In this document: positions 44,282 to 47,373 of the stretch, piece after piece
Layout: every line of letters starts with the position of its first letter
Numbering within the stretch: the stretch's first letter is position 1
NCBI GenBank assembly: GCA_023666645.1
Contig: JAMPBP010000007.1
Span: 1-50,818 of the forward strand
Length of the DNA stretch: 50,818 bases
Reading direction: 5' to 3'
Source of the DNA: Clostridiales bacterium
Lineage (GTDB): Bacteria; Bacteroidota; Bacteroidia; Bacteroidales; Muribaculaceae
Made by a program: the position numbers and the translations under genes
The notes under the pieces: model-generated
Database searches by the model: none
What the model was told of the DNA's origin: nothing
The model's input: the letters and a program-made list of their open reading frames with translations, nothing else

Positions 44282-44944
44282 TCAACTTACTATACGTCCA
44301 TCAACGATACGTATTATACGATTGGTCTGCTCTCCTACCACCGGGTCATGCGTAACAATGACAATAGTCATCCCTTTATCGGTATTCAACTCCCGGAATA
44401 TCTGCATCACTTCATGCGAAGTGTGACTGTCAAGAGCACCCGTAGGTTCATCGGCAAGAATAACCGCAGGATTAGTTATAAGAGAACGAGCTATTGCCAC
44501 TCTCTGCTTTTGCCCGCCCGACAATTCGCCCGGTAAATGGTGTGCACGCTCGGCAAGCCCCATACGCTCGAGTTGTTCCATCGCAAGTATATTGCGTTTA
44601 CGACGCGAAACTCCCTGATAGAACAATGGTAACGCAACGTTTTCCAAAGCATTTTTATAACTTATGAGATTAAATGATTGGAACACAAAACCGATGAGAC
44701 GATTTCTAAGTTCAGCAGCTTTATTTTCATTGAGATTCTTTATCAAGGTTCCATTGAGATAGTAATCCCCAGTATCATAATTGTCAAGAATGCCAAGAAT
44801 GTTGAGCAAAGTTGATTTTCCGGAACCGGAAGCCCCCATAATTGAGACAAGTTCTCCACGCTCAATTGTAAGATTTATATCCTTGAGGACATGCAGCGGT
44901 ACAACTCCGGGATAGGTCTTATTTACATCAGTCAATTTAATCAT
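44282..44944 (-). CDS. ABC transporter ATP-binding protein (MacB/LolD-like ATPase)
   Basis: It has Walker [23 protein letters not shown] and Walker [12 protein letters not shown]. The start is taken at the ATG for MIKLTDVNK; the ORF track extends to 44992. Confidence 0.9.
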
Positions 44945-45164
44945 AATCGTGACGAATATTTTAATTCTATATCGATATGACGCTACATGCAATGATAAGT
45001 TGCCAAATAATCATAAATTTAAACAACTTTTAATACAAATTGACACTTAAAGTAAAAGCCTGTCACACGCCTGAAGCACGGATAACCATATTGCTCATGA
45101 ACAATTGAAGCTGAGATCCATGCTGAGACCTATGAAAAACATTGGTAAAAAAAGATCCAAAAAA

Positions 45165-45196
45165 TTTGCAAATCCGAACCTTTACTTTTAAATTTG
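45165..45196 (+). promoter_or_regulatory. Near-consensus Bacteroidetes sigma-A promoter with no protein gene downstream
   Basis: TTTG (45165-45168), a 20-nt spacer, then TAaaTTTG (45189-45196). Spacing and motifs match the -33/-7 consensus. Confidence 0.5.
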
Positions 45197-45204
45197 CGTT
45201 ATAA

Positions 45205-45531
45205 AAATACAAGGACGACATACGAGAGACAAGAGAGTCAATCAGTGGTGAAAGTCGTCAATAGATTTTAAATTGATAAAAATCTACCACATCAAAGTTG
45301 ATTGGGAAACTCTTCAAATCAATATGAAATGCCGAGACAAGCTTAGTCGTCTGATGGCGGGCCCCAATTTATCGATTTTATCGTTAAATGCTTTTATGCC
45401 AGGCGGATTACAAAGGATGGCGAGCACTCAAATCCTGTCTATTCGGAGTTTCATCGCATCCTTTGATGTGGTTACCTATACGATAGGGGTATATCAAGCT
45501 AACAGTTTGATATACCCCTATTATTTTTTTT
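45205..45531 (+). ncRNA. Candidate small RNA or short transcript of about 330 nt, bounded by the promoter at 45165-45196 and the terminator at 45484-45531
   Basis: It lies in a 617-bp gap with no convincing ORF. The only ORF (86 aa, TTG start) runs through the terminator hairpin. Confidence 0.3.
45484..45531 (+). terminator. Strong rho-independent terminator, plus strand only
   Basis: TAGGGGTATATCAA-gctaacagt-TTGATATACCCCTA is a 14-bp perfect stem, followed by TTATTTTTTTT. Confidence 0.65.
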
Positions 45532-45561
45532 AACATGGCCCATAATTAGAATTACGGAACA

Positions 45562-45948
45562 CTAATGTACAGAACTGTCAATGGGATCATTATACATCGA
45601 CATCAGCCTGTCAATGGCTGCACGGTCGGGCAACAGATGACCGTCATCGGAATAGGTGACCAGCGTCGACATAGGGTAAAAATCAGGATTCTGTTTCACC
45701 TGATAATCTGAACTTTCCTGCGACTCAAGCCCCTGTGCACCGGCTGCAGCTTCCAAGGCTTCATTGGCATAGGCGATTTCTTTAAACATATCGCTTTCAC
45801 TCATAAGGATTGCCTCATAAGTCTCGGGATAAACACACAATTGCATGTCTGGACCCAACACATCATAATCTTCTATATAGGCATTCACACAGCGATTAAT
45901 TGCCTTCCTCAAATCTTCTTTTGTCATAATATTTACCTCCTTTTTCAA
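45562..45948 (-). CDS. Hypothetical protein (acidic, about 120 aa)
   Basis: An ORF with no recognisable motif. Confidence 0.4.
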   Translation of the reverse strand: MKKEVNIMTKEDLRKAINRCVNAYIEDYDVLGPDMQLCVYPETYEAILMSESDMFKEIAYANEALEAAAGAQGLESQESSDYQVKQNPDFYPMSTLVTYSDDGHLLPDRAAIDRLMSMYNDPIDSSVH

Positions 45949-46053
45949 TCCTGAATTGATTAGACAGAAACGGTTTCGTTAGCTTTTTTCAATTAAACAG
46001 ACAGTTAAATCGTTTTGTTTATGAGCACATAGAAAACGACTGAGATTTGACCC

Positions 46054-46077
46054 TTAGAGCCCATTCGATAAGGAATG
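46054..46077. repeat. Truncated copy of palindromic element family 1 (TTAGAGCCCATTCGATAAGGAATG; right arm lost)
   Basis: It is identical to 4517-4540 up to the point of truncation. Confidence 0.5.
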
Positions 46078-46135
46078 TTAAAGCTGGGGCGGAAAGACAC
46101 ACACCCGGTTGACGATAAACAGTATTATCACAACA

Positions 46136-46178
46136 AAAGGAATGATTGCGGGATATTTACCATGGCAATCATTCCTTT
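46136..46178. repeat. Perfect 14-bp stem hairpin (AAAGGAATGATTGC-15 nt-GCAATCATTCCTTT)
   Basis: It lies downstream of the minus-strand ROK gene, next to the family-2 hairpin. Confidence 0.5.
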
Positions 46179-46187
46179 ATTAGATTT

Positions 46188-46245
46188 AGAGCCTGTCTCA
46201 TAAAATCACGTGGCCGAGGGGGCGTGATTTTATAAGACAGGCTCT
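46188..46245. repeat. Palindromic element family 2, full copy (AGAGCCTGTCTCATAAAATCACG-tggccgaggggg-CGTGATTTTATAAGACAGGCTCT)
   Basis: It has a 23-bp stem with one mismatch and sits immediately 3' of the ROK gene stop. Its left arm is shared with the partial copy at 31848-31865. Confidence 0.6.
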
Positions 46246-46257
46246 TATCTATATATC

Positions 46258-47373
46258 TCAAGCCTGAGTGGCCGACTGTTCATCGATTTTAGAGAGTGCA
46301 AAGGCATAAGCTCCAGCTGAAATGGCCTTGCTGGCTCCGAGTTTAGAAAATGTCACACCAATACGTTTCATATCATCGTATTCAACCGACAAATTTGTAC
46401 CACGCACGGTAAGGCTCTTTTTGTTTCCCTTGGCAAAAGCTGCAAATTCATTGGGGTCGTCAAGGTTGAAAACCTCCATCTGTACTCGGCGTACATTATC
46501 GCCTCCAATTGTTGTAAACGAACTGCGTAACTCTTTAATCAAGGAAGGCAAGATCAGATGTCGTGCTGCAGTTATTCCTCCACCTATAACGATTATTCCA
46601 TCGATAAGCTGCGCAGCTATAGCCATAGAATCACCGGCTATCTCTCCAAACTCAGCGAAAGCCTTTTTGGCTGCTTCAGCATTACCCTCACGCACCCCAT
46701 CGGCTATTTCGCAAATTTCCTTGGGCTCATAACTGTGGGCATAATCATCGGAGGTCTCGGCATACACTCGCTTAATGGCTCGAACGGCAACACCTTCTTC
46801 GGCTATAATACCTGTTTTTGTTTTGTGGGGTAGACAAAAGGTTTCAACGCAGGAATTGTCACCGCGGTTGAGTTGACCGTTAACTACCACTCCGATACCA
46901 AATCCTGTACCAAACGTATAGCCTAATAGATTTCGATAGCGCTTGCTGCTGCCAGCCTCGGCCAGGCGCTTGTTGACATCGGGTAATGCTCCACATAGTG
47001 CTTCGCCATAGGCAAACAAATCTCCATCATTATTGATGAACACAGGCAAACCAAATTCATTCTGCAAAAATGGTCCAAGGGCAACACCATTACGGAATGA
47101 CGGGAAATTGGGAAGATAACCTCCTATGATGCCATTTGGATAGTCAGCCGGACCGGGGAAAGCAAAGCTTATAGCCACAGGCTTTTCGTCGAGGGAATCT
47201 ATAACCTCCCGGAAACCTTTCACCATAGTGTCAAGACACAGGTCAAGGTCATGGGCATTTGATGGATATGTGATTGGCTTAGTAATATATTCGCAGCCTC
47301 GCATCGCACCAAAAACAAGATTTGTTCCTCCGGCATCAAGCGTAATTACAATTCGATTATCGTAGGTGTACAT
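46258..47373 (-). CDS. ROK family sugar kinase/regulator-like protein
   Basis: It has the N-terminus ITLDAGGTNLVFGA, a central glycine-rich ATPase fold (GYTFGTGFGIGVV), and the ROK Cys/His region (C..C..H). Confidence 0.8.
   Translation of the reverse strand: MYTYDNRIVITLDAGGTNLVFGAMRGCEYITKPITYPSNAHDLDLCLDTMVKGFREVIDSLDEKPVAISFAFPGPADYPNGIIGGYLPNFPSFRNGVALGPFLQNEFGLPVFINNDGDLFAYGEALCGALPDVNKRLAEAGSSKRYRNLLGYTFGTGFGIGVVVNGQLNRGDNSCVETFCLPHKTKTGIIAEEGVAVRAIKRVYAETSDDYAHSYEPKEICEIADGVREGNAEAAKKAFAEFGEIAGDSMAIAAQLIDGIIVIGGGITAARHLILPSLIKELRSSFTTIGGDNVRRVQMEVFNLDDPNEFAAFAKGNKKSLTVRGTNLSVEYDDMKRIGVTFSKLGASKAISAGAYAFALSKIDEQSATQA

Follow-up and report, generated by a model that had tools for sequence, protein, structure and literature searches.

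The window, by which we mean the whole 50.8-kb stretch of DNA that was analysed (50,818 nucleotides from a Muribaculaceae bacterium), contains a gene-free gap of 617 nt (44945-45561) between two minus-strand genes, just as the sequence-only reading of this DNA had described. Within this gap a predicted promoter and a predicted terminator, both on the plus strand, bracket what we propose to be a gene for a structured non-coding RNA. The features of the locus are as follows.

44282-44944, minus strand: ABC-transporter ATPase gene (Pfam ABC_tran)
45165-45168, plus strand: -33 element TTTG of a putative Bacteroidetes-type promoter, recognised from sequence only
45189-45196, plus strand: putative -7 box TAAATTTG, in the pattern TTTG-N20-TAAATTTG; the box is conserved in relatives
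45197-45284, plus strand: predicted 5′ leader, opening with the conserved CGTTATAAAAA and lying outside the Rfam model
45228-45239, plus strand: leader hairpin GAC-AAGAGA-GUC, from fold prediction and conserved in relatives
45285-45479, plus strand: predicted 6S RNA core, matching the full RF01693 model and aligning with BTnc017
45286-45297, plus strand: closing stem, 5′ strand ACCACAUCAAAG, pairing with 45461-45472 over 12 bp, with compensatory changes
45298-45331, plus strand: central open region, 5′ strand, unpaired in the consensus, with the near-invariant GGGAAACUC at 45304-45312
45332-45339, plus strand: internal helix, 5′ strand, invariant CCGAGACA, with its partner UGUC..UCGG within 45436-45446
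45341-45425, plus strand: apical stem-loop domain with the invariant GGCGGGCC (45356-45363) and GGAUUACAAA (45406-45415), paired in the Rfam model
45426-45460, plus strand: central region, 3′ strand CUCAAAUCCUGUCUAUUCGGAGUUUCAUCGCAUC; positions 45436-45446 of it hold the 3′ strand of the internal helix
45461-45472, plus strand: closing stem, 3′ strand CUUUGAUGUGGU, pairing with ACCACAUCAAAG
45473-45481, plus strand: spacer UACCUAUAC between closing stem and terminator, the counterpart of the YCTTATA spacer of relatives
45482-45531, plus strand: intrinsic terminator, a hairpin at 45482-45522 and then eight T at 45524-45531
45562-45927, minus strand: ORF of 121 aa downstream of the terminator, with no Pfam match

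The proposed RNA gene is divergent from the ABC ATPase gene and two FtsX-type permease genes, and the same ATPase and permease neighbours were found at the corresponding gene in at least nine Muribaculaceae loci, with the ATPase up to 90% identical; by this shared neighbourhood the window would belong to the same family. On the other side, the 121-aa ORF has a 44%-identical homologue in L006, the closest relative, at a distance of about 1.3 kb from the 6S gene. At the far end of the window (positions 1-81), a minus-strand TACCTTTG -7 box at position 81 is followed by a segment, ...GGTTCCTTGGCCGAGTG, that runs off the window start and in its sequence resembles the 5′ end of a class II tRNA; no complete tRNA was reported in the window by ARAGORN or Rfam.

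It is very likely, with a probability that we put at about 0.93, that the promoter-terminator pair encloses a 6S RNA gene of the ssrS type, in the Bacteroidales form known to Rfam as Bacteroidales-1. The scan for 6S and Bacteroidales families that the sequence-only reading had proposed as a check returned a full-length match to RF01693 (Bacteroidales-1) at 45285-45479 of the plus strand, covering model positions 1-179 of 179 with 107.8 bits (gathering score 60 bits) and an E-value of 7.8e-19; the apical region exceeds the model by 17 nt. In a scan of the whole 50.8-kb window RF01693 was the sole family to reach its gathering score, and in a permissive scan of 44900-45620 neither RF00013, the canonical 6S family, nor 6S-Flavo RF01685 was matched at E-values up to 10. 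Other Rfam families that appeared in the gap (snoRNA, DapZ, IMES-1 and similar) were rejected as sub-threshold chance matches. RF01693 was also matched in all 18 related loci tested.

The Bacteroidales-1 motif was described by comparative genomics (Weinberg et al. 2010, PMC2864571), and Rfam labels the family "6S-Bacteroidales RNA suggested". In Bacteroides thetaiotaomicron the RNA was detected by dRNA-seq and named Bacteroides 6S RNA (Ryan et al. 2020, PMC7366714), and two classes of antisense product RNAs (pRNA and pRNA*) were found on it (PMC7366714). The supplementary table of that study lists its sequence as BTnc017; transcription starts 8 nt ahead of the called processing site, and the RNA ends at GCGGCUUUUUU, where a U-run directly follows the closing stem (PMC7366714). 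We found that BTnc017 aligns with the window RNA from end to end, with 127 of 181 aligned positions identical (70%), and that its processed 5′ end aligns to window position 45281. In Segatella copri, Bacteroidales-1 was detected by northern blotting and accumulates in stationary phase (preprint 10.1101/2024.04.05.588293). In the literature on the family we found no report of RNA polymerase binding by a Bacteroidales-1 RNA, and our search found no paper naming both Muribaculaceae and 6S RNA. The assignment of a 6S function is made by analogy, and rests on the pRNA evidence from B. thetaiotaomicron and on the architecture of the RNA, not on sequence homology to E. coli 6S RNA. Since the RNA belongs to a curated and experimentally supported family, the gene itself is already known and is an ordinary one.

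With 195 nt, its own promoter and terminator motifs and no coding signal, the core agrees in size with the 6S class (~180-200 nt). The non-coding unit of ~330 nt that had been read from the sequence stands as the predicted primary transcript, but the conserved functional core is only ~195 nt of this (45285-45479), the first ~82 nt being leader and the last ~50 nt terminator.

BLAST homology to relatives was limited to about 45279-45480, the closest relatives being Muribaculaceae MAGs with 87-89% identity. Relatives were collected by searching one genome of each species with a pattern built on two invariant blocks. This gave 119 loci (Bacteroides, Phocaeicola, Muribaculaceae, Dysgonomonas, Coprobacter, Barnesiella and others), of which 110, the window included, had enough flanking sequence for analysis. 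The core is conserved across several Bacteroidales families; since the scan pattern fixed CCGAGACAAGCTT…GGCGGGCC, the invariance of those columns is partly by construction. The consensus structure of the 110 sequences (RNAalifold) has three paired parts with long unpaired conserved segments between them. Its pairs form in 96.2% of cells, compared with 34-48% when the partners are slid, and the observed pairing values were reached by none of 500 shuffles. The test of covariation in relatives that had been suggested earlier found compensatory changes in 15 pairs across the 110 sequences, comprising all nine tested pairs of the closing stem and six of the 12 in the apical helix. The pairs of the internal helix are invariant in this set, partly since they too were fixed by the scan pattern. 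A further candidate helix between GAAACUC (45306-45312) and GAGUUUC (45446-45452) is pairable in 99.2% of cases, with both strands invariant and zero compensatory changes.

The modelled structure is consistent with the rod-like 6S fold, with a 12-bp closing stem, a large open centre and an apical stem, the exact geometry of the central bubble aside, which cannot be fixed because its strands are invariant. Two GC-rich stretches had been singled out from the sequence as paired. The first, ggcgggcccc, is present at 45356-45365 and contains the invariant GGCGGGCC of the family. The second, a pairing of gcatcctttgatg with catcgcatcc, is not real: it is CUUUGAUGUGGU (45461-45472) that pairs with ACCACAUCAAAG (45286-45297).

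The promoter TTTG-20 nt-TAAATTTG at 45165-45196 is present as the sequence-only reading gave it. In the window the pattern is found eight times, whereas shuffled sequence would give 1.8, so that a single match is weak evidence when taken alone; the weight of this one comes from conservation in relatives. A perfect TAnnTTTG box lies within 200 nt upstream of the 6S core in 110 of 110 related loci. In the Bacteroides and Phocaeicola-type loci this box stands directly before the RNA, at an offset of -66 or -67 from the anchor in the Bacteroides type, which is consistent with the start site in B. thetaiotaomicron. In loci with the Muribaculaceae-type 5′ end (ACCACAUCAAAG) it stands farther upstream, leaving leaders of 24-128 nt. 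Since the box is conserved, the leader that follows is specific to 6S genes and no conserved proximal box is present, the distal promoter at 45165-45196 is probably the real one and most likely the only one. From the usual spacing of the -7 box, transcription would start at about 45201-45204.

The leader that separates this promoter from the core is wholly absent from Bacteroides-type 6S genes. In most of the 57 loci with a distal promoter, which have the Muribaculaceae-type 5′ end, the consensus after the -7 box is YGTTRTAAAA-n-CAAAG, followed by a small hairpin that is typically GGC-AAGAGA-GCC (examples being window 45197-45259, L006:102-145, L085, L115 and L019). Beyond this 5′ part neither the sequence nor the length of the leader is conserved among relatives, and the segment from hairpin to core varies from about 9 to at least 80 nt. 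None of the other TAnnTTTG sites in the window is followed by YGTTRTAAAA, and this element is therefore specific to the 6S leader and not a general promoter feature. In 37 of 57 leaders, a stem of 3 bp or more encloses a loop that differs from AAGAGA at one position at most; the other 20 leaders lack such a hairpin. The hairpin is short, its stem having just 3 bp in 19 of the 37 loci and also in the window, where it is predicted to be nested in a longer stem formed by GACGAC (45214-45219) and GUCGUC (45254-45259). The third stem pair, just outside the fixed GC/GC core, covaries, being GC in 33 cases, AU in 24 and unpaired in three.

The leader motif is also largely confined to 6S genes. In 0.95 Mb of DNA from the fetched loci, both strands included, 33 of its 40 occurrences were in 6S leaders. 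When a metagenome scan was made with the leader motif alone, it gave 65 matches, and 43 of the 53 that were assessable were followed by a 6S core (42 by pattern and L135 through Rfam). The others comprised 12 on contigs that were too short, nine copies of one unrelated locus and one chance match. The nine contigs (L140:1847-1940, L145, L151, L152, L155, L164, L165, L171 and L180) share the unrelated chance match TTTTTGCGTTATAATGAGCGCAAGAGAGCCAGAGGGAGCTTGCTCACTCTTGGCGAACGG…, which has a TATAAT-type -10 box and is followed by no 6S core; L140 contained zero Rfam families at threshold.

A second short motif, (A)ACATTGACA(T), recurs in seven related loci (L052, L098, L005, L036, L011, L003 and L080) within the stretch of leader that is otherwise not conserved, at 7-40 nt from the start of the 6S RNA. 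A variant, ATTGATA, is present in the window at 45273-45279, 13 nt ahead of the 6S 5′ end, and again in L075, there 90 nt upstream. This motif could be a processing site or an AT-rich coincidence. Two pairings of the leader were considered and rejected. For an rRNA-like processing stalk between the start of the leader and the 3′ trailer, the duplex energies in 57 loci equalled the values obtained with shuffled trailers (mean z -0.04), and pairing of the leader AAGAG with CUCUU of the central region was discarded since in the alignments the target is CUCAU in many of the loci that carry the hairpin.

At the 3′ end, the hairpin and U-run identified earlier as a terminator are both in place. The hairpin at 45482-45522 has 19 pairs including two G-U, 15 of them contiguous Watson-Crick pairs, with a 3-nt loop and a predicted energy of -27.7 kcal/mol, and it is followed by eight T at 45524-45531. 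This is the sole terminator-like site in 44500-46300. In 91 of 110 related loci the sequence downstream of the core contains a hairpin with a folding energy of -8 kcal/mol or lower, immediately followed by four or more T. In the Muribaculaceae type, the order after the closing stem is a short spacer resembling YCTTATA, then a GC-rich hairpin and finally a T-run; the spacer, at 45473-45481 in the window, may be a site of 3′ trimming. A GCCG motif seen in many of the trailers was set aside as merely the start of the GC-rich terminator stems.

RNAs of the 6S class mimic an open promoter, sequester the RNA polymerase holoenzyme and are released by the transcription of pRNAs. By analogy, we propose the following for the window RNA. 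Transcription from the TTTG/TAAATTTG promoter would start at about 45201-45204 and end at the terminator (45482-45531), giving a primary transcript of ~330 nt. The ~195-nt core (45285-45479) would fold into a rod with a closing stem, an open centre of invariant single-stranded segments and an apical stem-loop. This rod would mimic the open promoter and occupy the active site of the holoenzyme containing the primary sigma factor, thereby sequestering it, mainly in stationary phase; on outgrowth, the polymerase would use the RNA as template for short pRNAs and so be released. We infer this binding of polymerase in the host organism from the family. The core is probably released from the transcript by processing, and the ~82-nt leader would most likely be removed from the 5′ side, as in the precursors of E. 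coli ssrS. In E. coli the ssrS promoters lie at -9 (P1) and -224 (P2), and the precursors are then processed at both the 5′ and 3′ ends (PMC9670815), while the 5′ end of Bacillus subtilis 6S-1 RNA is matured by RNase J1 (PMC10578484).

The hairpin with the AAGAGA loop, close to the 5′ end, would most likely serve as a determinant of the stability or processing of this precursor. For the Muribaculaceae-type leader element as a whole (YGTTRTAAAA…CAAAG plus the AAGAGA-loop hairpin) we put forward only tentatively that it is a signal for maturation, stability or protein binding that controls 6S levels, or else the mark of a 5′-extended variant.

The main alternative to processing is that the leader is retained, such that the mature RNA is a 5′-extended 6S variant of ~280-330 nt in which the hairpin is functional, for example in binding a protein, or that the leader is freed as a separate short RNA. 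The conservation of the 5′ part of the leader, the covariation in its hairpin and the occurrence of the AAGAGA-loop motif almost only before 6S cores would all suit a leader with a function of its own. However, a retained leader would include the segment between hairpin and core, which is unconserved and varies from about 9 to at least 80 nt, and no pairing between leader and trailer was found that would join the leader to the rod. Furthermore, Bacteroides-type 6S genes have no leader, and both the B. thetaiotaomicron 6S RNA and the E. coli ssrS precursors are 5′-processed. We therefore consider retention unlikely, and removal of the leader by processing the preferred explanation.

It is less likely still that a second, proximal promoter produces an RNA of mature length directly, as P1 does at E. 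coli ssrS, with the distal promoter being additional or unrelated. The candidate is TAGATTTT at 45263-45270, which agrees with TAnnTTTG at all specified positions except one; the sole promoter of Bacteroides-type loci does adjoin the core, and two promoters are used at E. coli ssrS. However, no TTTG -33 element precedes TAGATTTT, and its distance of 15 nt from the 5′ end of the core is beyond the usual spacing. A proximal box with up to one mismatch at offsets -69 to -57 from the anchor, which include the Bacteroides-type position, was found in 0 of 57 distal-promoter loci, and TAGATTTT of the window, at offset -70, is the single near-match in this region. A conserved proximal promoter at the Bacteroides position was accordingly rejected, leaving it as a weak possibility for the window alone, and the distal promoter as the probable source of the transcript.

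The sequence-only reading had favoured a trans-acting sRNA or a small structured RNA. The latter part holds, since the RNA is a structured non-coding member of RF01693, but by family precedent it would act on RNA polymerase and not by base-pairing in trans. That it nevertheless targets mRNAs by base-pairing is very improbable: an orphan intergenic unit with its own promoter and terminator would fit such an sRNA, but the RNA is a full-length member of RF01693, its conservation across several families, long invariant single-stranded blocks and rod-like fold are typical of a protein-binding housekeeping RNA, and pRNAs were seen on the B. thetaiotaomicron homologue.

The possibility that the interval encodes a small protein can be dismissed. 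The only sizeable plus-strand ORF in the gap, noted earlier for its TTG start, lies at 45273-45533 (86 aa from the TTG, 69 aa from an internal ATG), but it crosses the terminator stem, its product has no Pfam match, columns at the first, second and third codon positions vary to the same degree (0.189/0.195/0.194, with no periodicity), the lengths of the apical insert in the 110 loci are spread evenly modulo 3 (33/35/42), with no preference for 3n, and the ORFs that relatives have across the core vary in their extent and keep no common frame. The coding-type conservation of the 69/86-aa ORF that the sequence-only reading had named as the finding that would speak against a non-coding RNA was thus not seen.

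For annotation, this means that the 617-nt "empty" gap holds a 6S RNA gene and that the 86-aa ORF should not be called. As 6S RNA globally controls how much RNA polymerase is available in growth transitions, its presence is expected in the genome of a gut Bacteroidales species, and the lineage-specific architecture of the gene is the only point that goes beyond the routine. Within it, the conserved leader hairpin is the one item for which we found no description, and it adds a small new detail to a gene that is already known. Should the hairpin control maturation or stability, it would give a way into the regulation of 6S levels in a gut family that is abundant but little studied.

Among known systems, 6S-Flavo (RF01685), from other Bacteroidetes, belongs to the same phylum and has the same proposed function, but is a separate family that the window RNA does not match. 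E. coli 6S RNA (SsrS, RF00013) likewise has no detectable sequence or profile similarity to the window RNA (E up to 10), and the promoter type and the primary sigma factor differ, yet the two RNAs share the rod fold with its closing stem, open centre and apical stem, and presumably also the same action on the RNA polymerase holoenzyme with release driven by pRNA. The E. coli ssrS precursors also have 5′ leaders, of 9 and 224 nt, as the window transcript is predicted to have, and in E. coli these are processed (PMC9670815). The closest counterpart is Bacteroidales-1 itself. In Bacteroides-type loci the -7 box stands directly before the RNA, whereas in the window the promoter lies ~82 nt upstream and a hairpin-bearing leader intervenes, and in B. 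thetaiotaomicron the 6S RNA stops with a U-run directly after the closing stem, whereas the window has a 9-nt spacer and then a separate terminator of 19 pairs. The RNA between these differing ends is nevertheless alike, since BTnc017 and the window share the invariant blocks GGGAAACUC, CCGAGACAAGCUU, GGCGGGCC, GGAUUACAAA, CUCAAAUC and CGGAGUUUCAUC, and the closing stem occupies the same place in both, its sequence differences being compensatory.
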